A stretch of DNA of 64,000 nt. Origin: Gemmatimonadota bacterium. Its GTDB lineage: Bacteria > Gemmatimonadota > Gemmatimonadetes > Gemmatimonadales > GWC2-71-9. A program made the translations under genes and the position numbers. The notes under the pieces are model-generated. The model was not told where the DNA came from. It saw only the letters and a program-made list of their open reading frames with translations, and did not search any database. How positions within the stretch are numbered: the first letter of the stretch is position 1; each line of letters opens with the position of its first letter. Positions 719 to 15,599 of the stretch are shown one piece after another. The stretch covers positions 8,202 through 72,201 of the forward strand of contig QHUS01000092.1 of NCBI GenBank assembly GCA_003222035.1, written 5' to 3'.

Positions 719-775
719 AACCGGCTTGAGACCGTGGACCGATCGTGCCTCCCGTTCCTCGCACTGGGAGACACG

Positions 776-1234
776 ATGCAATTCGGCCACCTCGGGATCG
801 CGCTCGCGATCGCTTCCCTCGACCCGCGCCCGGAGACGTACGCCATCGTCGGGGCGGCGCAATTCCTGCCGAACGCTGACTCACTCGTCATCCGCGCTGG
901 CTGGGCTCCGTCCGAGTTTCATGGGACCTGGAGCCACAGTCTCGCGTTCTGCGCCGCCGTCGGTGCTGTCGCGGCGGTCCTGTTCGGACCCTGGCTCGGC
1001 GCTCTCGCGTTCGCGAGCATCGCGGCGCACGTAATCGCCGACCTGCCGACGGACACGGGGATCCCCGTCCTCCTCCCGTTCAGCCGGCACCGCTTCACGC
1101 TCAATCTCTGGAAAAACACCGGGTATTGGGGACGGAGCATGTATTTCGGCTACTACCGCCAGCCGTGGCCGTGGATTCTCGAAGGGGCCGTGTTCGCGCT
1201 CGTGGCTTGGCGGTACGCGGGATTGCTCGCATGA
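776..1234 (+). CDS. Membrane metal-dependent hydrolase (YdjM/LexA-binding family)
   Basis: Motifs GH...LPNAD...HGTWSHSL...HVIAD...G in hydrophobic context; ATG 776 preceded by GGGAG. Confidence 0.75.
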   Translation: MQFGHLGIALAIASLDPRPETYAIVGAAQFLPNADSLVIRAGWAPSEFHGTWSHSLAFCAAVGAVAAVLFGPWLGALAFASIAAHVIADLPTDTGIPVLLPFSRHRFTLNLWKNTGYWGRSMYFGYYRQPWPWILEGAVFALVAWRYAGLLA

Positions 1235-1812
1235 AGCTGCTCGCGTTCCTCGTGGTCGCTATGGTGGTGCACGGCCCGCTGTCGCCGCTGTTGCCCACTG
1301 CCTTCGAGACCGCGCTGCTCTATTACGTGCGGTTCTACCCAGCCTGGCTGCTGGCGGTGGTCGGCACGCTGGGGGCGTCGCTCGCGGAAGCGCTCAACTA
1401 TCGGCTGGTGGATTGGGCCGTGGCGCTTCCGAAACTCGCGGCGCTGAAACAGCGCTCTGGGGTGCGTTGGACTGTCGGGGCGTTCTTGCGTGCCCCGTTC
1501 TGGACGACCGCGTTCGTGATCTTTTCCCCGATTCCCGACTCCGCGGTACGAATCCTCGCGCCGCTCGGCAGATATCCGCTCCACAAGTTTCTCGCGGCGG
1601 TGGCACTGGGCCGTTTCCCGCGCCTGCTAGTCATCGCCGGTCTCGGCGTGCTCGTCCCGATTCCGACGTGGCTGCTGCTCGGCGTCGGAGCGGGTCTCGT
1701 GGCGCTCACCGTGGGGCGAAGCGATGTGGCCGCGGCGCTCGCGTGGCTGTGGCGGCGCTACGGAGACCTCTACCGGCCACTCAACGGGCGTGCCGCTCGT
1801 CGAACGGACTGA
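1231..1812 (+). CDS. DedA/VTT (SNARE-associated) membrane protein, putative lipid scramblase
   Basis: GTLGASLAEALNYRL...FSPIPD...KFLAAVALGRFPR pattern; ATGA overlap with upstream gene. Confidence 0.75.
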   Translation: MKLLAFLVVAMVVHGPLSPLLPTAFETALLYYVRFYPAWLLAVVGTLGASLAEALNYRLVDWAVALPKLAALKQRSGVRWTVGAFLRAPFWTTAFVIFSPIPDSAVRILAPLGRYPLHKFLAAVALGRFPRLLVIAGLGVLVPIPTWLLLGVGAGLVALTVGRSDVAAALAWLWRRYGDLYRPLNGRAARRTD

Positions 1813-1815
1813 ACT

Positions 1816-2676
1816 ATGTGGCTACTCGGGCTCGTGCTCCTGGCGGATACGATTCGGACCTTCACGCTCCCGCTTTCGGCGGCCGAGTCGCTCACGGTCA
1901 CGGTGGCGGGCGATGGCGATCCTGTGGTGCTGGTGCCGGGCTTGATCGGCTCGGCTTTCGGGTACCGTCGGCTCGTACCGCTCCTGACTCAGGCCGGGTA
2001 CCGCGTCATCGTGGTGGAGCCACTCGGCATCGGCACGTCGGCGCGCCCCGAGCACGCTGACTACTCCCTTACGGCCCAGGCCGACCGCATCGCCGCCGCG
2101 CTCGACCGGCTCGCCGTGCGGGGCGCGATCGTCATCGCCCACTCACTCGGCGCGTCGATGGCGTACCGCATGGCCTACCGGCGCCCGGACCTCGTCGTCG
2201 GGATCGTCTCGATCGACGGGGGTCCCGCCGAGCGAGCTGCCACGCCCGCGTTTCGCCGCGCGATGGCGTTCGCGCCATGGATCAAGCTGTTCGGCGGCGT
2301 CAGCCGCGTGCGCAGGAAGGTCCGGGCGCAGCTGATCAAGGAGTCTGGAGACACGACCTGGGTGAGCGACGCGGTAGTGGATGGCTACACCCAGGGGGCG
2401 GCCCGGGATTTGGACGCGACGCTCAAGGCGTTCGTCACAATGGCTGAGCGACGTGAGCCGGAGCGGTTGCGTCCCCATCTCTCGGAGTTACGGTGTCCTG
2501 TCCGGCTCCTGGTCGGGACCGCGCCGCATGACGGAGGGATCAGCCAAAGAGAGGTAGGCGTCCTCGCGGAAGCGCTCCCAGCGTTCACGGTTGACAGCAT
2601 TCCAGGGGTGGGGCACTTCATCCAGGAGGAGCGGCCGGAGGCGATTGTGGCAGCGGTGGCGCGGGTCCGCTCGTGA
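1816..2676 (+). CDS. Alpha/beta fold hydrolase, probably exported
   Basis: VVLVPG oxyanion region, AHSLG nucleophile elbow, C-terminal GHFIQEERP; short hydrophobic N-terminus. Confidence 0.85.
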   Translation: MWLLGLVLLADTIRTFTLPLSAAESLTVTVAGDGDPVVLVPGLIGSAFGYRRLVPLLTQAGYRVIVVEPLGIGTSARPEHADYSLTAQADRIAAALDRLAVRGAIVIAHSLGASMAYRMAYRRPDLVVGIVSIDGGPAERAATPAFRRAMAFAPWIKLFGGVSRVRRKVRAQLIKESGDTTWVSDAVVDGYTQGAARDLDATLKAFVTMAERREPERLRPHLSELRCPVRLLVGTAPHDGGISQREVGVLAEALPAFTVDSIPGVGHFIQEERPEAIVAAVARVRS

Positions 2677-2726
2677 AAGCGGGTCCGTTGCCCGGCGCGC
2701 CGTCTCGTGATTACAATTCCCGCGCT

Positions 2727-3833
2727 ATGACTCGACACCTCTTCCTCGGACTATTCGTCCTCCTGTCAGCCGGCGACCGATCGGCGCCGCTCGAAGCTCC
2801 CGGTCCTCGCATCTTCCTGGACGACGCGAACGGCACGCTCGTCCTCGACCTTGCGCCCATGGACCTGCCCGCGCGAACGCCGCATCACGCGATCGCACAA
2901 CCTCCGGTGGCAACACTCGAGATTCCCGAGTCGGGATCCATTTATGGCTTCCGGGTTCAGGTGGTGGACAGCGCCGGGCACGCACTCCCCGACGAACTGA
3001 TCCATCATTTCAATCTCATCGACCCGGACCACCGCGAGCTGTTTCTCCCGATCTCGCGGCGCCTCCTGGCCGCGGGACACGAGACTGGAGCGATCCAGCT
3101 GCCACGTCTGCTGTTCGGGCTGCCGCTCAAGCAGGGCGAGCACGTCGTCGCGAGCGCGATGGTCGAGAACATGACCCCGACGGCCTATCGGCAGGCGCGG
3201 GTGCGTCTCGTCATGCGCTTCACGCCCGCGCGGCGTCCGTGGCCGCTGTTTTCCGCCTCGCCGTGGCAGATGGATGTCGCGTTTCCGGTCGGCGACAAGT
3301 CGTTCGCGCTTCCCCCCGGGCGGTCTTCGCGCTCGTACGAGGGCAGCCCGGCGGTGCCCGGAAAGATCGTCGGCCTGGGCGGGCACATGCACGACTACGG
3401 GCGCGTGATCGAATTCACCGACGTGACGTCGGGTGCAGTTATCTACCGTGCCTCCCCGGTCGCGGATGCGGCAGGCCAGATCGAATCGATTCCGGTCGCG
3501 AAGCTGTACGGCTGGACCCGGCTCGGCGTTCACATCGTGCCGGAGCACCGCTATCGCATCAGCGTGTCCTACGACAATCCCACCGGCGCGCCCATTCCAG
3601 ATGGAGGCATGGGGGTCGTTGGCGGGCTGTTCGTTCCCGATCACGGAGTCACCTGGCCGGCTGCGGACCCCCGCGATTCCCTCTATCAAGCGGATTACCG
3701 ACACTACATGCGGCTCGAGGGGGACGGGCACGGGCACGACATGATGCGGATGGCGGACAAGTCGATGGCGAGGGGGGGCGCGATGCCCATGAAGATGGGC
3801 GCCCACGAGCGCGCCGCGCACGACCGCCACTAG
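2727..3833 (+). CDS. Secreted copper type II (PHM/DBH-like) monooxygenase-like protein with His/Met-rich tail
   Basis: Signal peptide; IHHF (CuH-like), GGHMHDYG and later GMG (CuM-like HxH plus Met); YDNPTG; tail GHGHDMMRM...MPMKMGAH..H..H. Confidence 0.55.
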   Translation: MTRHLFLGLFVLLSAGDRSAPLEAPGPRIFLDDANGTLVLDLAPMDLPARTPHHAIAQPPVATLEIPESGSIYGFRVQVVDSAGHALPDELIHHFNLIDPDHRELFLPISRRLLAAGHETGAIQLPRLLFGLPLKQGEHVVASAMVENMTPTAYRQARVRLVMRFTPARRPWPLFSASPWQMDVAFPVGDKSFALPPGRSSRSYEGSPAVPGKIVGLGGHMHDYGRVIEFTDVTSGAVIYRASPVADAAGQIESIPVAKLYGWTRLGVHIVPEHRYRISVSYDNPTGAPIPDGGMGVVGGLFVPDHGVTWPAADPRDSLYQADYRHYMRLEGDGHGHDMMRMADKSMARGGAMPMKMGAHERAAHDRH

Positions 3834-3852: not shown

Positions 3853-4509
3853 GTGCTGTTCGACTTCGGCGGGACGCTCGACGCGGATGGCGTTCACTGG
3901 AGTCCTCGGTTCCACGCCGCCTATCGTGCCGTGGGCGGTGGCCTGGATTTCGCGGCGTTCGAGACCTTCTTCAAGGCCTCCGACACGGCTGTCGCGCGGT
4001 TGCCCGACATTCGAGCGCTCGGATTCCGCGCCGCGATCGACGCGCAAGCCCGTTTGCTGGCCGGATTCCTGCCCGACCGTGTGGACCCCGGGGTGATCGC
4101 GCAGCGGTTGCACGCGGATGCGCTCGCGATCGTGACACGCAACACTCCCGTGCTGGAGCGACTCGCCCGGCGCTACAAGCTCGGAGTCGTGTCCAACTTC
4201 ACCGGCAACCTGCAGCCGTGTTTGCAGGAGCTCGGATTGGCGAGATTCTTCAGCGTGATGAGCGACTCGGCCCTGGTGGGGTGGAGCAAACCCGACGCGC
4301 GTATCTTCACACACACCCTGGACGCGCTGGGCGTGTCGCCACAGCGCACGTGGATGGTGGGCGACAACTTCGAAGCGGACGTCCGCGCCGCCGCGGCGCT
4401 GGGGATGCGGACGTGCTGGCTCGCGCCGCCCGACCGCAGCCCGCCGGGGGGCCTCGTCCCCACGGCCCGGATCGCGCGCCTCCCGGACGTCGAACAGGTG
4501 CTGGACTGA
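3853..4509 (+). CDS. HAD-superfamily hydrolase (phosphatase)
   Basis: FDFGGTLD motif I variant, VVSNF, KPDARIF, MVGDNFEAD. Confidence 0.88.
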   Translation: MLFDFGGTLDADGVHWSPRFHAAYRAVGGGLDFAAFETFFKASDTAVARLPDIRALGFRAAIDAQARLLAGFLPDRVDPGVIAQRLHADALAIVTRNTPVLERLARRYKLGVVSNFTGNLQPCLQELGLARFFSVMSDSALVGWSKPDARIFTHTLDALGVSPQRTWMVGDNFEADVRAAAALGMRTCWLAPPDRSPPGGLVPTARIARLPDVEQVLD

Positions 4510-4510
4510 C

Positions 4511-5242
4511 GTGCACGGGCTGATCCTCGCCGGGGGAGAGGGGTCGCGGCTTGCTGCCGGGGGCGTTCGGGTGCCGAAGCCTCTCGTGGAGGTAGCCGGC
4601 CGCCCCCAGATCGTGCGGTTGCTCGAGACCTTCGCCTCCCTAGGCTGCCCCAGTCTGACCTGTGCTGTGCGGGCCGATTTCCCCGCGGTGGTACGCCTCC
4701 TTGCCGAAGCGCGGTTCGGACCGCCTCTTTCGGTGGTGGAGTGCCGGACGCCGTCGTCGCTGCATACGCTGGTCGAAGGGCTTCGGGCGGTACCGGCGGG
4801 TCCGGTCTTCTGCAGCATGGTGGACACCGCCATGCGAGGGGAGGACTGGGTCGCGCTGTACCAGGGGACGGCCCGGCATCTGGAGGAGGGCGTGGACATG
4901 GTGCTCGCTGTGACCCCCTACATCGATGATGAGTCTCCTGTGTACGTTACCCGGACCAAGCGGGGAGGAGGGGGGAGGGAAGGGGTGGCGGTCCAGGCGG
5001 TGAGCGACCAGCCGGTCGACCCGCCCTGCGTCACCGGCGGGGTCTACGGCTTGAGTGCGGGGGCGCGCGGCGCCGCGGCGGACGCGGTCGCCGCCGGCGT
5101 GCGGAAGATGCGCGGCTTTCTGAAGGCCGTGTTGGCGGACGGCGGGCGCGTGGCGGCGGTGGAAGTACCGCGCATCATCGACATCGATCGACCATCGGAT
5201 CTCCAAACTGCCAACGCGTGGCTGGCCGCACGCGAAAGGTGA
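4511..5242 (+). CDS. NTP-transferase (sugar/polyol-phosphate nucleotidyltransferase, probable cytidylyltransferase)
   Basis: GLILAGGEGSRL...PKPLVEV signature; C-terminal IDIDRPSDL. Confidence 0.85.
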   Translation: MHGLILAGGEGSRLAAGGVRVPKPLVEVAGRPQIVRLLETFASLGCPSLTCAVRADFPAVVRLLAEARFGPPLSVVECRTPSSLHTLVEGLRAVPAGPVFCSMVDTAMRGEDWVALYQGTARHLEEGVDMVLAVTPYIDDESPVYVTRTKRGGGGREGVAVQAVSDQPVDPPCVTGGVYGLSAGARGAAADAVAAGVRKMRGFLKAVLADGGRVAAVEVPRIIDIDRPSDLQTANAWLAARER

Positions 5243-5245
5243 ACC

Positions 5246-6106
5246 TTGGCCCAACTCGTCGCGATCTATCGCAACCCGTCGTACTCTCCCCTGCAGCACC
5301 GCGTGAACGACACCGCCATCCTCGATGCGACGGTGGCGCGGCTCGAGGCCGAAGGCTGGCGCGCGATCAAGACCACCGAGTGGGAGGTCGAGCGCGGTCG
5401 AGTCCCCGGGGCGGAGCTGTATCTCAACATGTGCCAGGGCGCGCGCGCGGCAGAGCAGCTGCTGTCGCTCGAGTCGGATGGCGCGGTGATCGTGAACCGC
5501 CCGTCGAGCGCGCTGAATTGTCACCGGCGTCGCCTGGTCGAGCGGTTACGGGAGACCGGCCTCGCGTTTCCCCGCACTCTGATCCACGCGACCTCGGGGC
5601 CCGCGCCCTCGCCCGAGGAGCTCGAAGGCCTGCACGCCGATCAGGGGAAGGTCTGGCTCAAGCGGGGCGACGTGCACGCGGAGCGCCCCGAAGATGTGAT
5701 CGCGACGTCGCTCGAGCGCGTGGCAGACGCGCTGCAGGCGTTCCGCCAGCGCGGCATCCCCTGGGTGGCGCTGCAGGAGCACATTCCCGGCCCGGTGGTG
5801 AAGTTCTACGGCGTGGCGGAAGGGCGATTCTTTAACTGGTACGGGGCGGACGCGGGCTTCGCGGGCGAGCGGCCACGGGTGGACGAGCGGCGGCTCAAGG
5901 CGCTCGCTCTCGATGCGGCGGCGAGCATCGGGCTCGAAGTGTTCGGCGGCGACGTGGCCTTCCCCGAGCCCGACCGTCCCGTCCTGATCGATATCAACGA
6001 CTGGCCGAGCTTCGCGCCGTTCCGCGAGGACGCGGCGCGGGCCATTGCGGCCTATCTCATCCAACGATTCGCCATCGGTGACGTGCGTGACGCATACGTT
6101 GCGTAG
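5246..6106 (+). CDS. ATP-grasp fold protein (RimK/ITPK1-like)
   Basis: WLKRGD, LQEHIPG..VKFYGV, GLEVFGGD, LIDINDWPSF metal-binding segment. Confidence 0.75.
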   Translation: MAQLVAIYRNPSYSPLQHRVNDTAILDATVARLEAEGWRAIKTTEWEVERGRVPGAELYLNMCQGARAAEQLLSLESDGAVIVNRPSSALNCHRRRLVERLRETGLAFPRTLIHATSGPAPSPEELEGLHADQGKVWLKRGDVHAERPEDVIATSLERVADALQAFRQRGIPWVALQEHIPGPVVKFYGVAEGRFFNWYGADAGFAGERPRVDERRLKALALDAAASIGLEVFGGDVAFPEPDRPVLIDINDWPSFAPFREDAARAIAAYLIQRFAIGDVRDAYVA

Positions 6107-7421
6107 GCTCCAGGTCCCCGGGCCGAAGTCGAAGGCCCTGTTCGACGCCGAGGCGCTGTATTTGGCCCCTGGCACTCAGAGCGTGGCGCTCTTCAGCCAG
6201 CTCTCGATCGATCACGGGGACGGTGCGGTGCTGTACGACGTGGACGGCAACCGCTACGTGGATCTGCTCGCGGGAGTCGGGGTCGCCAGCATCGGGTACG
6301 CCCATCCGAAGTACGTCGCGGCCATGCAGCGACAGATCGCGCGGGTTCACGTGGGGAGCTTCACGACGGAGCATCGCGCCGCGCTCGTGAAGCTGATCGC
6401 CGAGCTCACCCCCGGCGACTTGAATCGCACGCAATTCTATTCGAGCGGTGCCGAAGCCATCGAGGCGGCGCTGCGACTCGCAAAGTCGCGCACCGGCCAC
6501 ACGGAGGTCGTGGGCTTCTGGGGCGGGTTCCATGGCAAAACCGGCGGCGTGCTTCCCGTGCTCGGCTCGAGCTTCAAGCACGCGCTCGGGCCCCTCATGC
6601 CGGGCGCGTACCTGTCGCCCTACGCCTCGTGCGCCCGCTGCGCCTTCGGGAAGACCTTCCCGTCGTGCGAGTGGCACTGCGTCGACTTCCTCCGCAAGAA
6701 AATCGAGCTGGAAACCACGAAGGACGTCGCCGCGATCATCGTCGAGCCGATCCAGGGCACCGCCGGTAACGTGGTGCCGCCGCCGGGCTACCTGAAGCTG
6801 CTACGCGAGCTCGCCGACAGCTTGGGCGCCCTCCTGATCTGCGACGAGATGATCACCGGGTTCGGGCGTACCGGGAAGATGTTCGCGATCGAGCACGAGA
6901 GCGTGCTGCCGGACATTCTGACGGTCGGCAAGGGGTTCGGCGGTGGGTTCCCGATGAGCGGCGTGATCGCGCGCGAAGAGATCGCCTTCTCGCAGCCGTG
7001 GGCGAACGCGAGCGGCAGCTCGTCGTCGTACGGCGGCAATCCCCTCGCCGCGGCGGCGGCGCGTGTCACCATCGAGACGATCATCGAGGATCAGCTGGTC
7101 GAGCACGCGCGGCAGCTGGGCGCGAAGATGCTGGCCGAGCTGAAGAGGTGGGAATCCGAGCTGCCCATCGTATCCGACGTGCGGGGTCGTGGACTGATGA
7201 TCGGGATGGACCTCGTCGTTCCGGGGACCCGCCGGCTGCTCGACAAAAAGACCACGCGCTGGATCTTCGACACGCTGCTGGCCCGCGGGGTGCTCGCCAT
7301 GATCTACAACCCCGAGGTGCGCATCAATCCGCCGCTGGTCATCGACGAAGATCAGGCGCTGGGCGCCCTGGCGACCATGAAGGATGTGCTGGGTGAAGCC
7401 GCCGAACGACTTGTCGGATAA
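6087..7421 (+). CDS. Class III PLP-dependent aminotransferase
   Basis: SSGAEAIEAA, GFHGKT, IIVEPIQG, DEMITGFGRTG, PDILTVGKGFGGG; likely GTG start at 6087. Confidence 0.92.
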   Translation: MTHTLRRLQVPGPKSKALFDAEALYLAPGTQSVALFSQLSIDHGDGAVLYDVDGNRYVDLLAGVGVASIGYAHPKYVAAMQRQIARVHVGSFTTEHRAALVKLIAELTPGDLNRTQFYSSGAEAIEAALRLAKSRTGHTEVVGFWGGFHGKTGGVLPVLGSSFKHALGPLMPGAYLSPYASCARCAFGKTFPSCEWHCVDFLRKKIELETTKDVAAIIVEPIQGTAGNVVPPPGYLKLLRELADSLGALLICDEMITGFGRTGKMFAIEHESVLPDILTVGKGFGGGFPMSGVIAREEIAFSQPWANASGSSSSYGGNPLAAAAARVTIETIIEDQLVEHARQLGAKMLAELKRWESELPIVSDVRGRGLMIGMDLVVPGTRRLLDKKTTRWIFDTLLARGVLAMIYNPEVRINPPLVIDEDQALGALATMKDVLGEAAERLVG

Positions 7422-8295
7422 GGGCCGAGCCGTCGAGGAGTGGGTCGACCTCCACTTCTTCCGGCCGATCGGTATCCGGATTGCGCGCGCGCTCCAGCCG
7501 ACCGGCATCTCCGCGGACCAGGTGACGCTGTGGTCGCTCGCGATCGGGCTCGTGGCCGGCCACTTGTTCGCGTACGGCGATCGCTGGACCAACCTGATCG
7601 GCTTCGGGTTGTTCATCGTCTCCGACATCTTCGACTCGGCCGACGGTCAACTGGCGCGGCTGCGCGGCACCTCGACGCGGTTCGGCCGCTTGCTCGACGG
7701 CATCAGCGACAATCTCCGCTTCGTGAACCTCTACTTCCATCTCATCTACCGTCTCATCCAGTCGGGGTACTGGTGGCCGGGCGCCGTGCTGCTCGTGGCG
7801 GCGGCGGGCCTCGCGCACAGCATCCAGAGCGCCGCCATCGACTTCGTGCGGAACGCGTTTCTCCACATCGGGATCGGTAAGCGCGGCGAGCTGGATCTCC
7901 CCGAGGACCTGCGGGCCACGCGGCCGGCCACGTTGCTGGCGCGATTCGGCGGCAGGGTGTATCGCGACTACGTGCAGCGGCAAGCGGAGCTGTTCCCGCG
8001 CTCGGTCAAGCTGATCCGCGACCTGCGCCGCTATCCGGTAACGGACGGGTTCCGCCAAGGGTACCGGTCGCGTCAGGAAGTCGTGCTGCCGCTGTGCGCG
8101 TGGCTCGGGCAGAACATCCGCTTCGCGGCGCTGGGCGCCGCGGCGCTCGTCGGGCATGTGTCCGCGTTCCTCTGGACCGAGGCCGTGTGGATGAGCCTCC
8201 TCCTCGTGGTGCTCATCTGGATCCATGAGTCGAACGCCACGGTGCTGGGAGACCTGTTCGACAGCGAGCGCCATGCCTACGCCCGCGTCACCTGA
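7411..8295 (+). CDS. CDP-alcohol phosphatidyltransferase (long type)
   Basis: DSADGQLARLRGTSTRFGRLLDGISD matches DxxDGxxAR...GxxxDxxxD. Confidence 0.9.
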   Translation: MSDKGRAVEEWVDLHFFRPIGIRIARALQPTGISADQVTLWSLAIGLVAGHLFAYGDRWTNLIGFGLFIVSDIFDSADGQLARLRGTSTRFGRLLDGISDNLRFVNLYFHLIYRLIQSGYWWPGAVLLVAAAGLAHSIQSAAIDFVRNAFLHIGIGKRGELDLPEDLRATRPATLLARFGGRVYRDYVQRQAELFPRSVKLIRDLRRYPVTDGFRQGYRSRQEVVLPLCAWLGQNIRFAALGAAALVGHVSAFLWTEAVWMSLLLVVLIWIHESNATVLGDLFDSERHAYARVT

Positions 8296-9331
8296 GCCGC
8301 GGCGCTACCGCGGGGCCCTCATCGGAGCGGGCGGGATCGCGCGGCAGTCGCATCTCCCCGCGCTCCGCGGCGCCCCGGCCCTGCAGCGCCGGGTGGAAGT
8401 GGTCGCGCTGGTAGACAGCGCCGCCGACGTGCCGCCGGTCGACACGCTTCCGCTGCTTGCGCGCCGCGAGCAGCTCGCGGACCTCGGGCCGCTGGATTTC
8501 ATCGACATCTGCACGCCGACCGCATCGCACCTGGACCTGACGCTCTGGGGGCTCGAGCGTGGCTACCATGTCGTGTGCGAGAAGCCCGTCGCGCTGACGC
8601 GCGTCGAAGCGGACCGGATCGGCGCCGCCGCCCGGGCCAACGGTCGCATCGTGATGCCGTGTCACCAGTACCGCCACAACCCGGTCTGGGTGAAGGTGAA
8701 GGAGTGGCTCGCCGCTGGCGCCATCGGCCACTGGCACCTGGCCGAATTCTCCGTCCACCGGCCGACCGCCGATCCGGGTCGCGCCGCCGGCGACCCCGGC
8801 TTGCCGTGGCGCGGCACGCGTGCGGCCGGGCGCGGCGGGGTGCTGCTCGACCACGGTACGCACCTCATCTATCAGCTGCTCGACATCGCCGGTCTGCCGT
8901 CCACGGTGAGCGCTTGGACCGGCCGCCTGCGCCACGCAGCATACGAAGTCGAGGACACGGCATCGCTGCGGTTCGAATACCCGGGGGGAGGGCGGCTCGT
9001 CACGATGTTCTTCACGTGGGCGGCGCGCTCCCGCGAGAACCGGATTCGCTTCGTCGGTGACGCGGGTGCGATCGAGTGGGCCGGGGGCGAGCTGCGGCTC
9101 GAACGCGCCGGCGTCGTGGAGCGATTCGACTATTCGGCCGAGCTCGAGAAGAGCGCCTACCACCGCTGGTTCACGGGCCTATTCGAGGGGTTTGTCGCGG
9201 CGCTGGACCACGGCGCCGCAGCGGCCGCGGCCCCATTCCTCGAGGACATCCGGCGGGTCGCCAGCGTGGTGGAGCACGCGTACACCGCCGCCCGCAGCGG
9301 GACCACGGTCGCGATCCCGGGGAGCGCGTGA
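8273..9331 (+). CDS. Gfo/Idh/MocA family NAD(P)-dependent oxidoreductase (inositol/sugar dehydrogenase-like)
   Basis: IGAGGIA Rossmann fold, CEKPVA, GGVLLDHGTH. Confidence 0.9.
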   Translation: MPTPASPEPRRYRGALIGAGGIARQSHLPALRGAPALQRRVEVVALVDSAADVPPVDTLPLLARREQLADLGPLDFIDICTPTASHLDLTLWGLERGYHVVCEKPVALTRVEADRIGAAARANGRIVMPCHQYRHNPVWVKVKEWLAAGAIGHWHLAEFSVHRPTADPGRAAGDPGLPWRGTRAAGRGGVLLDHGTHLIYQLLDIAGLPSTVSAWTGRLRHAAYEVEDTASLRFEYPGGGRLVTMFFTWAARSRENRIRFVGDAGAIEWAGGELRLERAGVVERFDYSAELEKSAYHRWFTGLFEGFVAALDHGAAAAAAPFLEDIRRVASVVEHAYTAARSGTTVAIPGSA

Positions 9332-10326
9332 GCCGCAAGCTGCAGCTGCTGCTGTTCCTCGGTGGCTCCGCCGTCTTCGCGTACCTGGTCGGACGCATCG
9401 GCGTCGAGCAGCTCCTGTCCGACGCCGTACGCACCGGCTGGCTGTTCGTGCCAATTCTGCTGCTGTACGGCGTGGTGTGTCTCTGCAATGCCTGGGCCTG
9501 GTGGCTCAGCATGGCGGACGAGCCGAGCCATCCACCGTTCTGGCGTACCTTCGCCATCACGATCGCGAGCTTTTCGCTCAACTTCATGACCCCCATGGTC
9601 AACGTCGGCGGCGAGCCGTTCAAGATCGCCGCGGTGGCGCCGTGGCTGGGCTTGCGCCGGGCAGCCGGATCGGTCGTCATCTACCAGATGCTCCATACGC
9701 TGGGGATGTTGCTCAGCTTCCTCACGGCGGTGGTGCTCGGCGCCCTGCTGCTCCCGCCGCATCCGGCGCTCCTTACGACTCTGGCCGTGGCCTTCGTCGT
9801 CCTGGCGGGTCTGACGCTGCTGCTCCTGACGGGGCATCGCCGAGGCGGGTTGGAGCGGCTGCTGGATCTGTTGCACCGCATCCCGCTCGTCGACCGCGTG
9901 GCCCGCCGCCTCGAGCCCAAGCGCGCCACCATTGCTCAGATGGACGAGCAGATCACCGAGTTCTATCACCGGCGCCCGCGCCGCTTCGTCCAGGCGCTGG
10001 CGCTGGAGTATCTGAGTCGCTCGATCTTCATGATCGAGTACATGCTCATCGCGTTGGGCGTCGGTCTGCACATGACCTTCGCACAGGCCTACGTCATCGG
10101 CGGTCTCTCGTCGCTCATCCAGAACGTGATCTTCTTCGTGCCGTTCGAGGTGGGAACCAAGGAAGGCTCCCTGTACCTCGTGTTCCAGCTCCTGGGAATC
10201 GATCCAGCGGTCGGCGTCTACACCGCCATCGTGAGCCGGGCGCGCGACCTGGCCTGGATCGGCCTAGGGCTCGCGCTCGTCTGGTTCTCCGGACGCGCGG
10301 CGCAGGAGCGGACGGCGGAACCGTGA
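9328..10326 (+). CDS. Lysylphosphatidylglycerol-synthase TM/UPF0104 flippase-like membrane protein
   Basis: About 8 TM segments; NFMTPMVNVGGEP and FVPFEVGTKEG motifs; GTGA overlap. Confidence 0.85.
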   Translation: MSRKLQLLLFLGGSAVFAYLVGRIGVEQLLSDAVRTGWLFVPILLLYGVVCLCNAWAWWLSMADEPSHPPFWRTFAITIASFSLNFMTPMVNVGGEPFKIAAVAPWLGLRRAAGSVVIYQMLHTLGMLLSFLTAVVLGALLLPPHPALLTTLAVAFVVLAGLTLLLLTGHRRGGLERLLDLLHRIPLVDRVARRLEPKRATIAQMDEQITEFYHRRPRRFVQALALEYLSRSIFMIEYMLIALGVGLHMTFAQAYVIGGLSSLIQNVIFFVPFEVGTKEGSLYLVFQLLGIDPAVGVYTAIVSRARDLAWIGLGLALVWFSGRAAQERTAEP

Positions 10327-10766
10327 CGATCTTCACGCACGTGCTCGCCACCACACTCGGCGCGCAGGCGTTGGAGCTGCGCGGCGGGCAACTGGCGCTC
10401 GCGTACGCGTTCGGCGTGGGCGTCGACATCGATCACGCCATCAAGGCGCCGTTTTACCTGCGGGCCGTCGGCTTCCGGGACAAGCGCGGATACTACTGGC
10501 GCTCCTCGCTCCAGGAGCCGGTCGCCCTACTGTGGATCGTCCCGCTCAGCGTGTTCCTGGGTACGGTCATCCCGATCGTGTTTTTCGTCATGCACGTCGC
10601 GATGGACTACAGCGTGCGGTTCGAGAAGATGCCGGTCTACCCCTATTCCCCGTGGGTGACCCGAGGCTGGCTCACCCGCGTTCCGGACAAGGTCAAAGAG
10701 GGCATCCTGTTCGCAGTGCTGGTCGTGCTCAACCTCCTGGTCTACTGGTCGCGCAGGCATGTTTGA
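10323..10766 (+). CDS. Small membrane protein, divergent YdjM-like metal-dependent hydrolase
   Basis: N-terminal THV, VDIDH, RSSLQEP, HVAMD; GTGA overlap with flippase gene. Confidence 0.6.
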
Positions 10767-11361
10767 CTTCGCCCCCGCGGTGGGCCGGACGACGGATCGC
10801 GTGATCCGGCCGGTGCTGCGATTCTGTCACGTGGTCCTCGGCCTGTCGCCCGCGCAGGTCACCTGGGCCGCGTTCGTGGCCAGCGTGGCCGCGGCGGCCG
10901 CCGTGGCGACCGGGCGGCTGGGATGGGGCTTGAGTCTGATGGCGTTCGGCCAGCTGCTGGACGGCATCGACGGGGGCATCGCGCGCGAATACGGGCTCGC
11001 GTCCGAAGCGGGGCGGCGCCTCGACACGCTGGTGGACCGCCTGTCAGAAGCCGCGATCTTTGCGGGGTTCGCGCTGGCGCGGCTCGTGTCCTGGAAGCTG
11101 GCGCTCCTGGCCCTCGCCGCGATCCTCTTGATCACCACCATCGCGGATCGCTCGAAGCTCGACCCGGGCGTGAAACGCTTCGCGCTCTACTTTGGCCTGT
11201 GGCTTCCGTACCCCGCGATCTTCACTGTGGTGTTCGCTGTGAATCTGGCCGCCTACGTGGTGGGATTGCTGCTCCTCGACTTCCGGTTCCAACGCAGGAT
11301 GGACGCGCTCGGAGGCGACCTGGACACCATCGCCTCGCGGGCCGCGGCCCTCGCGCCCTAG
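10759..11361 (+). CDS. CDP-alcohol phosphatidyltransferase (short, PgsA/PIPS-like)
   Basis: [26 protein letters not shown] signature. Confidence 0.88.
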
Positions 11362-12320
11362 GCGGGACCCGTCTCCAGCTCGCGGCCGGGAAGCGAGCCG
11401 ACGGCGGTCGCGGGTTCCGACGCGTAGATGTACTGGGATGCGAAGACCGCGAAGGCGACGAGCAAGCCGGCCAGCGCATCCACGGCATAGTGGAACTGCC
11501 CGTAGACCACCGACAGGACCAGCCCGATCGTCAGCGGCATGAGGGTCAGGCCGAGCGGCCGCCAGTAGCGCAACGCGCAGAGGGCCGCGACCATCGCGGC
11601 CGCGACGTGCGACGAGGGGAATGCGGCGCCCCACGAGTCACCGCGGTCGAGTAACCACTGCGCCCACCGCGCCGGCCCGACCGACGTGGCGGCATTATGC
11701 GCGAGGTCGAACATGTAGCGCGGTCCCGCCACCGGGAAGAAGAGGAACACCACGTAACAAACGTAGAACGTCACCATCACCGCGAGGATCGTGCGCCGCG
11801 CCGCGTCGCGCCGGCCCCTTAACCAGAGCCCGAGCGGCGACGCGCACAGGATGGCGTAGTAGACGAGATAGCAGCTGTGCAGCAGCCAGGACAGCCCCGG
11901 GTTGGGCATCTCTCGGATCCAGCGGTACGACAGCTGCGACCCGAAGACCCAGAGCTCGAGCCGCTGGATGATCTGGTCGTGCTGGACTCCCAGATCCACG
12001 TTCACCACACCGACCTCCGCGTAGAGCCCGGCGAGCAGGACCATGGGGTACCAGTCGCCCAGGAAGCGACCGACCGCCCCGGCCTCGCGGGCGCGCGGGG
12101 CGATGAGGACGAGCACGACCACCAGTGCGTGCGCCGTGAGCAACAAGTCCCAGCTGGCGTGGTCCTCGCCCGAGAACGCGAGTACGGCCGCAGTCGCGAA
12201 CGTGACGTAGACGAGCGTGACGATGTCTACGGCGGTGAAGCGTTGTACGCCGACGCGACGGAACACGGCGAGCGCGCTCCAGAGAGGTGCCGTCGTGCCG
12301 TCGTGTAACGAGTGGCTCAC
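11358..12320 (-). CDS. PAP2_3 / AUR1-like inositol-phosphorylceramide-synthase family membrane protein
   Basis: [22 protein letters not shown] motifs; multiple TMs; GTGA overlap at 12317-12320. Confidence 0.8.
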
Positions 12321-13285
12321 AGCCACCCCTCGCTCCGATACCACGCCGCGGTGCGGTGCAAGCCCGTCTCCAAGTCGACCTCCGCACGCCAGCCCGTCTC
12401 GCGCATCAGCGTATCGGGACGGCACGTCCACGCGGGCGCGAGGAATTCCGCTGCTTTGTCACCCGACAGGACCGTCGCCCGGCCCGCGAGATGCGCTATC
12501 GTTCCGATCGTCCAGAGGAGACCACGAGCGATCGGCCGGGGGAGGGGCACGATCAACGGCGCCCGCCCCACGGCCCGTCCGATCGCCTGCACGAGCCCGC
12601 GGCTGGTGGTCACGACCGGGTGGGCGGCGTAATAGACGCGGTTGGTCGCCCCCGGCGCCGTGGCCGCCGCCACGAGAGCGGCGGCGAGATCCCCGGCGTA
12701 AATGACCGACAGCTCCTGCGAGCCGTCACCGAACACGGGGGCGAACCCCGCGCGAGCCAGTTTGAACGCTTTGAGCACTTCCCGATCCCACTCACCATAC
12801 ACCGCGGGCGGCCGCACGATGGTCCAGGACCGAGCCATGCCTCGCACGAGCACCTCGGCGGCGAGCTTGCTCTGGCCGTACGGCGTGACGGGCGACGGCG
12901 GCTTGGTCTCGTCGATCGGCTGCCCCGGCACGGTCGGCCCACCGGCCGCGATGGACGAGACCAACAGGAGCCGCCCTTGCCAGCCAGGTGCGATTGCCTC
13001 GAGCAGGTTGGCCGTGCCGTCCCGGTTGGCGCGCATGAATTCTCCGAGATCGCGCGCGCTGATCCGTCCGGCTACGTGGTAAATCACATCCGCGTCGGCG
13101 CACCCTGCGCGCAGCGCGCCGGAATCGTCCAGGTCGCCGTGAACTAGCCGTACATCGGTCCAGCCGAGGGCGGCCGCCTTGCGGGGGCTCCGCACGAGAC
13201 ACGTGACGGTGTCGCCACGGGTGCGCAGGGCCTGCACTAGGTGCGCACCGACGAACCCGGTGCCGCCGGTGACGAACGCCTTCAC
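12317..13285 (-). CDS. NAD-dependent epimerase/dehydratase-type SDR, probable ceramide (3-keto) reductase, CerR-like
   Basis: VTGGTGFVG, YGQSK (YxxxK), VRPPAVYG; in operon with spt and GNAT. Confidence 0.75.
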   Translation of the reverse strand: MKAFVTGGTGFVGAHLVQALRTRGDTVTCLVRSPRKAAALGWTDVRLVHGDLDDSGALRAGCADADVIYHVAGRISARDLGEFMRANRDGTANLLEAIAPGWQGRLLLVSSIAAGGPTVPGQPIDETKPPSPVTPYGQSKLAAEVLVRGMARSWTIVRPPAVYGEWDREVLKAFKLARAGFAPVFGDGSQELSVIYAGDLAAALVAAATAPGATNRVYYAAHPVVTTSRGLVQAIGRAVGRAPLIVPLPRPIARGLLWTIGTIAHLAGRATVLSGDKAAEFLAPAWTCRPDTLMRETGWRAEVDLETGLHRTAAWYRSEGWL

Positions 13286-14394
13286 AGTGGCTTGTCGTAG
13301 ATCCGGTAGGTCTTGTAAGGGTGGAAGCCGAGCTGCAGCGCGGCATTGACCATCGGCATGTTGTCTTCGAGGATCCACCCCCCCTCGCCCCAGGTGAAGC
13401 CGTGCTTCGCGCCCTTGGACCAGATCCAGTGGTACATCAGGGCGTCCACGCCGCTGCGGCGGTACTCCTTCAGCGCTCCGAGGAGCGGGATGCGGCAGCG
13501 ATGGATCCGGCGCGCATACCACAGGACCTTGGGGAGGCCCCAGATCCGGCCGGACGGATTGTGCTTCAGGGCCACGTTCAGATCCGGCAACGCAACCGCG
13601 AAGCCGATCACCTGCCCGGCGCGCTGGGCGAAGCACACCAGATCAGGGACCACGATCGGCCTCAGCTGCTTGGCGAGATGATCGATCTCCGCGCCGGTGA
13701 GCGGCACGAAGCCCCAGTTACGCTCCCATGCCTGGTTGTACAGCATCTTCACCAGCTCCACCTCTTCCCTGAACCGCTTCATGTCGAGCGGGCGCAGCGT
13801 GATCCCCTGGCGCTCGGCGAGCAGTTTGGCGACCCGCGTGATGCGGTCGGGCACCTGCGAGCTCGTGCTCTGGAACGCCAGCAGGTCCTTGGCCTTCGTG
13901 AACCCGTAGCTCTCATGCAGGGCGACGTACGAGGGGCCGTTGTGCGGCATCATCAGCGCCGGCGGCGTGTCGAAGCCTGCGACCAGTAAGCCACATTCAT
14001 CGTTGATCGAAGGGTTCATCGGCCCGCGCATCACGAGGAAGCCCTTGTCCGCGAGCCACCGCCCGGCGGCGTCGAACAGCGCGTTCGCCACCGGCTGCTC
14101 GTTGACGCACTCGAAGAAGCCGTAGAATCCGACGCGGTCCTGGTGCTCGTGCGTGTGTGCGTCGTTCTTGATCGCGGCGATGCGGCCGACCGTGCGGCCG
14201 TTCCGGACGGCGAGGTAATACTGGGCTGCGGCGTGCTCGAAGAACGGATTCTTGCCGGCCGTGAGCAACGTCCGGACGTCCATCCGCAGGGGCGGGACCC
14301 AGAGCGGGTCGCCGCGGTAATGCTCGTACGGAAAACCGATGAACCGCTCCAGATCGCGCCCGCTGGTTACGGGCACGATCTGCGGAGCGCTCAG
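13282..14394 (-). CDS. GNAT-fold N-acyltransferase, bacterial ceramide synthase (bCerS/YghO-like)
   Basis: VGRIAAI, GFYGFFEC, MRGPMNPSINDECGLLVAGFDTPP..MMPHN, WGFVP, WILEDN, KTYRIY; directly downstream of spt. Start uncertain (CTG 14394 or GTG 14376). Confidence 0.8.
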   Translation of the reverse strand: MSAPQIVPVTSGRDLERFIGFPYEHYRGDPLWVPPLRMDVRTLLTAGKNPFFEHAAAQYYLAVRNGRTVGRIAAIKNDAHTHEHQDRVGFYGFFECVNEQPVANALFDAAGRWLADKGFLVMRGPMNPSINDECGLLVAGFDTPPALMMPHNGPSYVALHESYGFTKAKDLLAFQSTSSQVPDRITRVAKLLAERQGITLRPLDMKRFREEVELVKMLYNQAWERNWGFVPLTGAEIDHLAKQLRPIVVPDLVCFAQRAGQVIGFAVALPDLNVALKHNPSGRIWGLPKVLWYARRIHRCRIPLLGALKEYRRSGVDALMYHWIWSKGAKHGFTWGEGGWILEDNMPMVNAALQLGFHPYKTYRIYDKPL

Positions 14395-15599
14395 ATGACC
14401 CCCAGCTCTTTGCCGATCCTTCCGAAGGTCTCCAAGGCGTAGTCGATTTGTTGCGCCGTGTGCGTCGCCATCACGCTCGTCCGCAGCCGGCAGCGCGACG
14501 GCGGCAAGGCCGGCGGCACGACGGGGTTGGTGAACACGCCGGCATCGAAGAGCTTGCGCCAGAAGAGCAGCGTCTTCTCGAATTCCCCGATCAGGAATGG
14601 CACGATGGGGGTCTCGGTCGTCCCGATGTCGAACCCCATCGAGCGCAGCCCCCGCTGGAGCCGACGCGCGTTCGTCCAGAGGCACTCCCGGCGCTCGGGC
14701 TCGCGTTGCATCACGTGCAGGGCAGCGAGCACCCCGGCCGTGTTCGACGGCGGGAGCGCGGCCGTGAACACCAGGGGTCGCGCATTGTAGCGGAGGAACT
14801 CGATCACCCCTTCGGGCCCCGCCACGAAGCCGCCGATCGACGCGAGCGATTTCGAGAACGTGCCCACGATCAGGTCGACCTCGTCGCCGAGCCCGAATTG
14901 GGCGGCGGTGCCGTCGCCCTGCGGGCCGAGCACCCCGACCGCGTGGGCGTCGTCGATCGCGAGCGCCGCTCCGTGCTTCTGAGCGATCTTGAGCAGGTTG
15001 GGCACGTCGGCGATGTCGCCCTCCATCGAGTAGACGCCATCGACAATGATCATCTTTCCGACGCCCGTCGCCGCGCGCTGCAGCTTGCGCTCGAGTTCCG
15101 CCAGATCGCCGTGGGCGAACCGCTCGGTTTGGCCGTACGACATCTTGGCGCCGTCCACAATCGAGGCGTGGTCCAATTTGTCGAGGAAGACGACGTCCCC
15201 CCGGCCCACCAGCCCGGAGACGACTCCCAGGTTCGCCTGGTAGCCGGTCGAAAACACGAGGCAGGCCTCCTTGCCGAAGAACTGCGCGAGCTCCCCTTCG
15301 AGCTGCTGGTGCAGATCCAGCGTGCCGTTCAACAACCGGCTCCCCGTGCAGCCCGAGCCGTAGCGATCGAGCGCCGCCTTTGCCGCCGCGAGCACCTCGG
15401 GGTGGTGCGTGAGCCCCAGGTAGTTGTTGGAGCCCATCATGATGCGTTGCTTCCCCTCGATGATGACCACGGTGTCTTCGGACTGGGAGATCGGCTTGTA
15501 CCAGGCGTGGAGCCCAGACGCCTGGACCTCGCGCGCCTTGGGAAGGAAGTTCCTGCACTTCTCGAACAACGCGATGTGCTGCAGGGTCTCGGTACTCAC
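14391..15599 (-). CDS. spt: Serine palmitoyltransferase (alpha-oxoamine synthase family)
   Basis: GSNNYLGL, GCTGSRLLNGTLDLH (SPT-type), DHASIVDG, DDAH, GTFSKS PLP-lysine; no bio genes nearby; ceramide genes follow. Confidence 0.8.
   Translation of the reverse strand: MSTETLQHIALFEKCRNFLPKAREVQASGLHAWYKPISQSEDTVVIIEGKQRIMMGSNNYLGLTHHPEVLAAAKAALDRYGSGCTGSRLLNGTLDLHQQLEGELAQFFGKEACLVFSTGYQANLGVVSGLVGRGDVVFLDKLDHASIVDGAKMSYGQTERFAHGDLAELERKLQRAATGVGKMIIVDGVYSMEGDIADVPNLLKIAQKHGAALAIDDAHAVGVLGPQGDGTAAQFGLGDEVDLIVGTFSKSLASIGGFVAGPEGVIEFLRYNARPLVFTAALPPSNTAGVLAALHVMQREPERRECLWTNARRLQRGLRSMGFDIGTTETPIVPFLIGEFEKTLLFWRKLFDAGVFTNPVVPPALPPSRCRLRTSVMATHTAQQIDYALETFGRIGKELGVI

Follow-up and report, generated by a model that had tools for sequence, protein, structure and literature searches.

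Nine genes at positions 3853-11361 of the 64,000-nucleotide stretch analysed here (called the window, always in the sense of the whole stretch) lie head to tail on the forward strand in a translationally coupled operon, which appears to make and attach the polar head group of a membrane lipid. The window belongs to contig C1 of a 3.58-Mb genome (94% complete, G+C content of about 69%), whose nearest relatives are, by record title, metagenome-assembled genomes (MAGs) of soil Gemmatimonadales. Neighbouring genes of the operon are separated by 1-3 bases or overlap, with GTGA start/stop overlaps at 9328-9331 and 10323-10326. No terminator-like site was found on the forward strand inside the operon by a promoter/terminator scan, whose counts equalled those of shuffled sequences and are thus uninformative. 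The genes, with the short names used hereafter, are as follows.

3853..4509, + strand: HAD-IA family hydrolase (HAD; PF00702 at 61.8 bits, PF13419 at 56 bits), presumed phosphatase of the pathway
4511..5242, + strand: MobA-like nucleotidyltransferase (NTP; PF12804 at 47.4 bits), presumed CTP:(amino)inositol-phosphate cytidylyltransferase
5246..6106, + strand: ATP-grasp protein of 286 residues (X286; recognised by profile and model), presumed kinase of a head-group precursor, possibly a ligase
6045..7421, + strand: class III, pyridoxal-phosphate (PLP) aminotransferase (AT3; PF00202 at 312.7 bits, cut-off 30.5), member of an add-on pair
7384..8295, + strand: CDP-alcohol phosphotransferase of 303 residues with extra C-terminal membrane segments (CDP1; PF01066 at 46 bits)
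8225..9331, + strand: Gfo/Idh/MocA NAD(P) oxidoreductase (GFO; PF22725 at 80 bits, PF01408 at 55.7 bits, PF02894), presumed ring-hydroxyl dehydrogenase, member of the same add-on pair
9328..10326, + strand: flippase-like membrane protein (LPG_synthase_TM, PF03706 at 95.9 bits), GTG start overlapping the GFO stop
10323..10766, + strand: small membrane protein of 147 residues without Pfam or NCBIfam match, GTG start overlapping the preceding stop
10759..11361, + strand: minimal CDP-alcohol phosphatidyltransferase of 200 residues (CDP2; PF01066 at 49 bits), similar to phosphatidylinositol-phosphate (PIP) synthase, part of an optional module

The genes named in an earlier note on this DNA, which had read them as the head-group module of an amino-cyclitol lipid, were all found within these limits and on this strand. 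Both CDP-alcohol transferases keep the motif DxxDGxxAR...GxxxDxxxD (as quoted in Heaver 2022, PMC9246714), present in CDP1 as an intact D-S-A-D-G-Q-L-A-R...G-R-L-L-D-G-I-S-D. CDP1 is the counterpart of the transferase in Bacteroides/Prevotella-type clusters, and loci of Bacteroides, Prevotellaceae, Sphingobacterium and Dysgonomonas encode relatives that are 30-35% identical to it over the full length. CDP2 matches archaetidylinositol-phosphate synthase (61 bits) and PIP synthase (56.7 bits), and the flippase-like protein matches HpnL (TIGR03476, 77 bits) and TIGR00374 (41.7 bits), all under the respective NCBIfam cut-offs. NTP, which is syntenic in both versions of the cluster defined below, has weak N-terminal matches only in the PDB, to sugar-1-phosphate nucleotidylyltransferases, and inositol-1-phosphate cytidylyltransferase is absent among its 9 PDB matches at E up to 0.01.

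Two versions of an inositol head-group cluster

Of 80 loci retrieved with X286 as seed, 57 hold, in a single orientation, HAD, NTP, X286, AT3, CDP1, GFO and the flippase-like gene, so that the arrangement is not a matter of chance; 20 of the remaining 23 loci are cut by contig ends. A search with an alignment of CDP1 (A2) returned 80 loci, of which 79 were tabulated (L031 was excluded) and 66 were left once 13 truncated loci had been set aside. AT3 and GFO are both present in 28 of these 66 loci, both missing from 38, and never found singly. Clusters with the two genes are referred to here as the amino version, and those with neither as the basic version. X286 occurs in 28/28 amino-type and in 37/38 basic-type loci (one lacks it) and is, by this distribution, part of the basic cluster. 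Basic-type loci (Bacteroides, Prevotellaceae, Muribaculaceae, Sphingobacterium, Dysgonomonas, Tannerella, Kapabacteria and others) run NTP-X286-CDP1-(flippase-like)-HAD, with myo-inositol-phosphate synthase (MIPS) alongside and without AT3 or GFO. Only some of the amino-type loci have CDP2, and no clear basic-type locus does; its constant companion is the 147-residue membrane protein, the two moving together (e.g. L050, L051, L078, L080).

AT3 is the best-conserved gene of the operon (56-61% identical across phyla), and identity between cluster orthologues from different phyla does not fall below 54%. In the basic-type genomes (5/5), the best match to the cluster aminotransferase anywhere in the genome is 34-37% identical, i.e. 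at paralogue level. This lack of an AT3 orthologue, together with the both-or-neither counts, identifies GFO and AT3, as far as gene content can tell, as a two-gene addition to an inositol head-group cluster, and not as a substitute for MIPS. In terms of homology and gene order, the operon is thus the NTP/ATP-grasp/CDP-alcohol-transferase/flippase-like/HAD inositol cluster plus a co-inherited GFO/AT3 pair. The suggestion that the pair is dedicated to an inositol-linked head-group operon is borne out by these counts; the accompanying one, that it stands where inositol-lipid clusters have MIPS, is not, since MIPS lies inside the same operon in other phyla.

Carriers of the amino version belong to Gemmatimonadota, Ignavibacteria, Acidobacteriota and Bacteroidota, to which an Elusimicrobia MAG with a rearranged set (L182) may be added. 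The earlier note had held that absence of the pair from most homologous clusters would count against its reading; amino-type clusters from at least five phyla all retain both genes, so that for clusters of this type the objection does not hold. Within Gemmatimonadota the distribution of X286 is patchy (37 of 301 sampled genomes, in two families only). Tallies of X286 and MIPS for this phylum take in three unpublished genomes (G056, G156, G181), on which no conclusion rests.

Some individual loci deserve mention. Melioribacter sp. OK-6-Me (L167, record NZ_JBPSEH010000001.1) is a cultured candidate carrier, in which tblastn located a complete amino-type operon including MIPS; Sphingobacterium multivorum NCTC11343 and Bacteroides ihuae are among the carriers of the basic version. 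The proteins of L167 are 51% (NTP), 64% (X286) and 92% (aminotransferase) identical to the Ignavibacterium query, which hints at a mosaic cluster. Records titled Syntrophomonadaceae (L113), [Ruminococcus] lactaris (L118) and Patescibacteria (L176) also carry clusters, which adjoin Acidobacteriota (L108) and Prevotellaceae (L135/L155) rows in the X286 tree, and the aminotransferase of the Patescibacteria record is 89% identical to the Ignavibacterium query. These three look like mis-binned contigs rather than cases of wide gene transfer.

The place of myo-inositol-phosphate synthase

The window itself holds no MIPS, as had been noted, and this is literally true; a search of the genome nevertheless located its single MIPS gene at C1:74221-75546 (window-equivalent 66020-67345), which puts it ∼55 kb downstream of the operon and ∼2 kb outside the window. 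Directly upstream of it lies a PIP-synthase-like CDP-alcohol transferase gene (NF045883, 160 bits, cut-off 170), the two spanning C1:73391-75546 (window-equivalent 65190-67345) and forming, on this contig, an ordinary phosphatidylinositol module apart from the operon. Since MIPS is present with such a neighbour, the organism is able to make inositol phosphate, and probably ordinary phosphatidylinositol as well.

In other phyla MIPS is part of the operon. It is the next gene after HAD in Ignavibacterium (L076) and Acidobacteriota (L073), and takes that position in 10 of the 11 loci from outside Gemmatimonadota in the X286-seeded set, the eleventh being truncated. Among loci seeded with the Ignavibacterium aminotransferase, 19/21 contain MIPS. 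It comes immediately behind HAD in 18, the nineteenth being the rearranged Elusimicrobia locus; the two loci without it end just past HAD.

The separation of MIPS from the operon in this lineage would find an explanation if the Gemmatimonadales head group were not derived from inositol at all, but came from the oxidation and amination of a different polyol or sugar phosphate (e.g. of serinol or amino-sugar type). No MIPS lies within 10 kb in 68/69 Gemmatimonadota-type X286-seeded loci, and relatives within the nucleotidyltransferase family accept varied phospho-substrates, according to the available text of PMC12275187. We nevertheless consider this explanation very unlikely: the seven core genes are orthologous to, and syntenic with, those of MIPS-containing operons, one MIPS is found on the same contig, and those residues of X286 that show at least 95% conservation over 71 sequences are common to the Gemmatimonadota and the MIPS-linked versions. 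CpgD-type CDP-glycerate chemistry was also considered, and set aside owing to the linkage with MIPS.

Co-occurrence of MIPS and X286 in genomes was tried as a test and abandoned: 35/37 X286-positive genomes have MIPS, but with a background of 265/301 in the phylum this is uninformative. Elsewhere in the window, an Inositol_P-family protein (22529-23305) is best regarded as the histidinol-phosphatase HisN (244 bits, cut-off 275) and is not evidence for inositol metabolism.

Enzyme assignments and version-specific residues

AT3, whose true start is possibly the GTG at 6087, scores under every NCBIfam equivalog cut-off, including that of GabT, the γ-aminobutyrate (GABA) aminotransferase (TIGR00700, 273 bits versus 506.65). 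In an alignment with Escherichia coli GabT (L183), the equivalents of K268, D239 and R398 are invariant, whereas R141 is replaced by K and E211 by T in 11/11 cluster orthologues. We take R141 and E211 of GabT to be substrate and gating residues, K268 to be the PLP lysine and R398 the arginine that binds the α-carboxylate. Its PF00202 score and the invariant PLP lysine place AT3 among the class III aminotransferases, and on the replacements it is not a canonical GABA enzyme, a point in support of the earlier note. Most AT3 orthologues also have a four-cysteine insertion (C-x2-C ... C-x3-C, columns ∼200-225 of alignment A4), seen neither in E. coli GabT nor in L065, which could be a metal or Fe-S site.

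The neighbours of GFO in the PDB are secondary-alcohol dehydrogenases of sugars and cyclitols, including scyllo-inositol dehydrogenase (5ya8, 4e-12). The protein has the NAD-binding and the C-terminal domain, and its translation contains EKP and DHGTH, presumably the catalytic motifs. No signal peptide was seen in the translations of GFO or AT3.

A profile of 16 HAD orthologues matches PH1655, HDHD3, YfnB and N-acylneuraminate-9-phosphatase (NANP) among PDB sequences, and the protein groups with these HAD-IA phosphatases. Typical HAD phosphatases carry an Asp+2 general acid in motif I. Here this motif is atypical, F-D-F-G-G-T-L-D, with D4, G6, G7, T8 and D10 invariant in 16/16 orthologues; D-x-G-G-T thus stands in place of D-x-D-x-T in all 16 amino-type orthologues, and also in 12 basic-type examples. 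With Asp+2 missing, the protein may not be a simple phosphatase, and the label of phosphatase is the weakest of the enzymatic assignments proposed here.

X286 itself has no Pfam or NCBIfam match, and its assignment to the ATP-grasp proteins, already made in the earlier note, is upheld by a profile of its orthologues and by superposition of an AlphaFold model at Z 19-21. The profile, built from 24 orthologues (A1), matches in the PDB the inositol phosphate kinase ITPK4 of Arabidopsis (7pup, E 4.7e-5), human ITPK1 and Entamoeba ITPK (∼0.004-0.005) and RimK (0.025), all over the C-terminal Mg/ATP-binding stretch. Scanned one by one against Pfam, the 24 orthologues gave weak matches to ATPgrasp_ST (11/24), Ins134_P3_kin (PF05770, 9/24, best E 0.0044, with 0 matches for the protein of the window) and RimK (6/24). 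An Atlas search returned clusters of "hypothetical protein" only; in one of these, 16% of the members carry RimK. The model (predicted local distance difference test, pLDDT, 89.7; predicted template-modelling score, pTM, 0.87) superposes on ArgX, LysX, RimK, Ddl, carbamoyl-phosphate synthetase, PurT, synapsin and PPIP5K2 at Z 18.9-20.8, e.g. on ArgX 3vpb at 20.8 (root-mean-square deviation 3.0 over 252 residues), RimK 7qyr at 20.8 and PPIP5K2 at 18.9, and Foldseek gave a probability of 1.00 with Ddl, LysX, RimK and ITPK1. As modelled, then, X286 is a three-domain ATP-grasp fold. Fold comparison was of no help in separating kinase from ligase, as all ATP-grasp families tie at Z 19-21. A role as a ligase acting on the new amine was judged less likely because 37 basic-type loci have the same gene but no aminotransferase; belonging to the basic cluster, X286 cannot serve only to acylate that amine.

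The two versions of the cluster were compared in five shared proteins for positions conserved within the groups (thresholds of at least 85% and at least 80%) with less than 10% cross-occurrence. Four discriminating positions were found, three of which change charge:

X286 position 64: Q in the amino version, R in the basic version
HAD cap position 65: Q in the amino version (93% of 30), K in the basic version (91% of 33)
Flippase-like protein position 273: E in the amino version (88% of 26), Q in the basic version (89% of 19)
NTP position 132: L in the amino version, M in the basic version

Over all distinct sequences, position 64 of X286 is Q in 99/101 amino-type and R in 36/36 basic-type proteins, and in truncated loci it agrees with aminotransferase status. 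The three charge changes all go toward a less positive or more negative residue in the amino version, and would fit a ligand with an ammonium group in place of a hydroxyl.

This set of observations bears on the simplest alternative, namely that the product is an ordinary inositol phospholipid or inositol phosphoceramide and that the pair does other work, such as epimerisation of the ring via a keto intermediate, supply or removal of an amino compound, or a step for some other metabolite. In its favour, the basic cluster is the commoner one among the loci retrieved (38/66) and its carriers are reported to make plain phosphatidylinositol-dihydroceramide (Heaver 2022, PMC9246714, in the available text); moreover, CDP1 shows no version-specific residue and AT3 is GabT-like by overall similarity. 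It would leave unexplained, however, why the pair is inserted at fixed places of the operon and never singly (0/66), why AT3 is the most conserved operon gene with no orthologue elsewhere in basic-type genomes, and why replacement of the gating and substrate residues of GabT goes along with matching charge changes in three partner proteins. For these reasons we regard this alternative as unlikely.

A predicted amino-inositol lipid and its pathway

A second operon, on the reverse strand, converges on the head-group operon and points to the lipid anchor:

11358..12431, - strand: PAP2_3 membrane protein (PF14378 at 71.5 bits), candidate transferase of the phospho-head group to ceramide
12317..13636, - strand: epimerase-family short-chain dehydrogenase/reductase (PF01370 at 119.3 bits), candidate CerR-like reductase
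13282..14397, - strand: GNAT-like protein of 371 residues without Pfam or NCBIfam match (Atlas neighbours), candidate bacterial ceramide synthase
14391..15599, - strand: serine palmitoyltransferase (Spt)-like α-oxoamine synthase (PF00155 at 189 bits; NF047600 at 504.5 bits, cut-off 640)

The PAP2_3 family is, we assume, linked to an AUR1-like role. The true start of the reductase is probably near 13300, as matches begin at residue 119 of the long open reading frame. For the 371-residue protein, the Atlas neighbours are clusters of "N-acetyltransferase family protein" of ∼370 residues (score 0.98, PF00583 in 59-84% of members), to be taken as a lead only. Bacterial ceramide synthesis involves Spt, the acyltransferase bCerS and the NDUFA9-like reductase CerR (PMC11087976, in its available text). 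The PAP2_3/ceramide module is adjacent to, and convergent with, the head-group operon in 28/80 X286-seeded loci, all from Gemmatimonadota. Genes for Spt-like proteins (484-520 bits) are present in 4 of 5 cluster-bearing genomes of other lineages, the fifth having two fragments at contig ends; BioF-like paralogues score ∼335 bits. Taken together, ceramide is likely to be the anchor, as in Bacteroides, and diacylglycerol possibly so, as far as the genes themselves can indicate. In Ignavibacterium (L076, 7496-9986), genes for MlaE, an MlaF-like ABC ATPase and MlaD lie between those of the nucleotidyltransferase and the ATP-grasp protein, which suggests dedicated lipid transport.

The flippase-like gene, the Mla genes inside the Ignavibacterium operon and the converging ceramide operon argue for a lipid rather than a soluble product. 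A compatible solute akin to di-myo-inositol phosphate, possibly aminated, would account for the combination of NTP transferase, CDP-alcohol transferase, phosphatase and MIPS, which is the gene set of di-myo-inositol-phosphate synthesis (also mentioned in the available text of Heaver 2022, PMC9246714), and NTP, CDP1 and CDP2 have weak matches to the model of the bifunctional enzyme IPCT/DIPPS (NF041135). These matches reach 18.1, 30.8 and 33 bits where the cut-off is 580, the PAP2_3 gene and ceramide operon adjoin the cluster, and the carriers are, by record titles, mesophilic bacteria of soil and gut, so that a solute appears highly improbable. The IPCT/DIPPS pathway of hyperthermophiles does resemble the present one in the CTP activation of an inositol phosphate, a membrane-bound CDP-alcohol transferase and a dephosphorylation; it differs in that the genes are separate here, with scores far under the cut-off, and come with a lipid context and an amination pair.

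On balance, the operon probably directs the transfer of an amino-inositol (inosamine) phosphate head group onto ceramide or diacylglycerol. The earlier proposal of an amino-cyclitol lipid is thereby sustained in part: the place of the pair in an inositol-linked operon speaks for it, and the replacement of MIPS, on which it had also leaned, has to be given up. In the pathway that we infer, including the order of its reactions and the position that is aminated, MIPS would make inositol 3-phosphate, a cytoplasmic GFO would oxidise one ring hydroxyl to a ketone, and AT3 would aminate this ketone, the donor being glutamate or another α-amino acid, since the equivalent of R398 is kept. X286 would phosphorylate the cyclitol, NTP would make the CDP-activated alcohol, and CDP1 would transfer the phospho-head group to the lipid by a Kennedy-type route; HAD would take off a phosphate, and transport to the outer leaflet would fall to the flippase-like protein. 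CDP2 and the 147-residue protein paired with it would, like the PAP2_3 protein, be lineage-specific extras, which may pass the head group between glycerolipid and ceramide.

Two orders of these steps fit. In the first (order A), HAD would dephosphorylate inositol 3-phosphate, whereupon GFO and AT3 would yield inosamine, to be processed by X286, by NTP with CTP, and by CDP1. In the second (order B), GFO and AT3 would act on inositol phosphate, X286 would add a second phosphate, NTP and CDP1 would follow, and HAD would last of all remove the phosphate derived from MIPS, in the same logic as PIP synthase followed by PIP phosphatase. Either order would explain why the basic cluster has a kinase-like and a phosphatase-like gene. 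The order first proposed (free polyol, keto compound, amine, phosphate, CDP derivative) corresponds to order A and is thus one of the two that fit. We lean slightly to order B with its late phosphatase step, because the version-specific residues of the HAD cap and of X286 suggest that both proteins see an aminated compound, because AT3 is cationic where GabT binds a carboxylate, and because ITPK-like kinases use inositol phosphates.

Order A follows the logic of streptidine synthesis, a pathway that comprises inositol dehydrogenase, inosose aminotransferase, inosamine kinase and a later phosphatase. Such aminocyclitol chemistry has in common with the proposed pathway the conversion of hydroxyl to ketone to amine, a phosphorylation, a later phosphatase and a dehydrogenase of the same superfamily. 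The aminotransferases of streptidine, rhizopine and aminoglycoside synthesis are of the DegT/StsC type, whereas AT3 belongs to class III (only PF00202 was matched), a difference from the rhizopine and aminoglycoside precedents invoked at first. The product would also differ, being CDP-activated and joined to a lipid rather than an antibiotic.

The closest counterpart is the alternative inositol-lipid cluster of Bacteroides (Phocaeicola) vulgatus and Prevotella (Heaver et al. 2022, Nat Microbiol, PMC9246714). As described in the available text of that paper, it comprises genes for an NTP transferase, a CDP-alcohol phosphatidyltransferase and a HAD hydrolase beside MIPS, with a lysyl-phosphatidylglycerol-synthase-like gene nearby, and its HAD is tentatively given the role of phosphatidylinositol-ceramide synthase. 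NTP, CDP1 and HAD correspond to the three genes, and each of them has a relative in Bacteroides, Prevotellaceae and Sphingobacterium loci, where the gene order is unchanged. The operon described here differs by the addition of AT3 and GFO and, in this lineage, of CDP2 with its small membrane partner, and by the distance of ∼55 kb to MIPS, which is adjacent in the published cluster as in the amino-type operons of Ignavibacteria, Acidobacteriota and Bacteroidota. An ATP-grasp gene between NTP and the transferase, seen in both versions, is not named for the published cluster in the available text (PMC9246714), and the likeness is drawn from the description and from the Bacteroides relatives. The word "aminotransferase" has 0 occurrences in Heaver 2022 (PMC9246714). 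The other known route, that of Bacteroides thetaiotaomicron and mycobacteria, comprises MIPS, PIP synthase, PIP phosphatase and an AUR1-like phosphatidylinositol-ceramide synthase (Heaver 2022, PMC9246714, available text). The present genome has comparable elements in the PIP-synthase-like gene upstream of MIPS and in PAP2_3 beside the ceramide operon; the head-group operon, however, uses a nucleotidyltransferase and another family of CDP-alcohol transferase, which point to a CDP-alcohol as donor rather than CDP-diacylglycerol, and carries the amination pair besides.

Several observations weigh against an amino-inositol lipid. MIPS lies outside the operon in this genome and is near-universal in the phylum (265/301 genomes of Gemmatimonadota). 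The nearest solved relatives of AT3 are GABA aminotransferases (GabT 4ffc, 8.6e-71), GFO is far under the cut-off of IolG (TIGR04380, 44.2 bits versus 355), and HAD is without the Asp+2 general acid. The ITPK signal of X286 is a 57-residue profile match, confined to the last 50-57 profile positions; by fold, the modelled protein resembles carboxylate-amine ligases (ArgX and RimK, 20.8) at least as well as it does inositol-phosphate kinases (PPIP5K2, 18.9), and no ITPK is among the 50 fold matches listed for the model. CDP1 has no version-specific residue at the thresholds used, and position 64 of X286 has two exceptions in amino-type loci, R in L167 and E in L182. In the X286 tree the versions are split by a single branch (Shimodaira-Hasegawa-like approximate likelihood-ratio test, SH-aLRT, 83) and three version changes are needed in the CDP1 tree, so that the charge changes may record one to three events, possibly one split. 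Finally, the alternative cluster serving as reference is itself predicted and unconfirmed, according to the available text of Heaver 2022 (PMC9246714).

From its genes, the operon is probably a variant of a known, itself predicted, kind of cluster, for a lipid class not yet described. A literature search, in which subscription-only papers were not covered, found no description of an inosamine or amino-inositol lipid and no paper on ceramides of Gemmatimonadota. The available text of a Black Sea sphingolipid paper (PMC11334938) mentions neither inositol nor the phyla considered here.

It is tempting to speculate more widely that soil Gemmatimonadales and lineages of Ignavibacteria/Melioribacteraceae, Acidobacteriota, Bacteroidota and Elusimicrobia make zwitterionic inosamine phosphoceramides, phosphatidyl-inosamines or both by a Kennedy-type CDP-cyclitol pathway, with an ATP-grasp cyclitol kinase, a flippase of its own and, in some, Mla-type export, and that residue 64 of X286 (R or Q) marks the head group; we judge the chances of this general proposal to be about even. 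Bacterial inositol lipids were long considered rare. The CDP-inositol or "alternative" route to them is so far a genomic prediction (Heaver 2022, PMC9246714, available text). If the present proposal is true, this route extends to an aminated cyclitol, and abundant, mostly uncultured soil bacteria possess a zwitterionic phospho-sphingolipid or phospholipid. Candidate roles are also offered for two genes that gut Bacteroides and Prevotella carry in their basic cluster, encoding the ATP-grasp protein and the atypical HAD, and the both-or-neither pattern of GFO and AT3 would provide, together with the R/Q marker in the ATP-grasp protein, simple genomic predictors of the head group.

Two further features of the window may be recorded. 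Upstream of the operon (23-3833) lie genes for a YdjM-like membrane protein, a VTT/DedA protein, an alpha/beta hydrolase and a protein of 386 residues without family match (2673-3833), in an order kept in close Gemmatimonadales relatives only. Farther downstream, an H+-pyrophosphatase is split into two open reading frames (43303-44637, covering profile positions 1-393, and 44764-45360, covering positions 466-645), which may reflect a frameshift, an assembly error or a broken gene.

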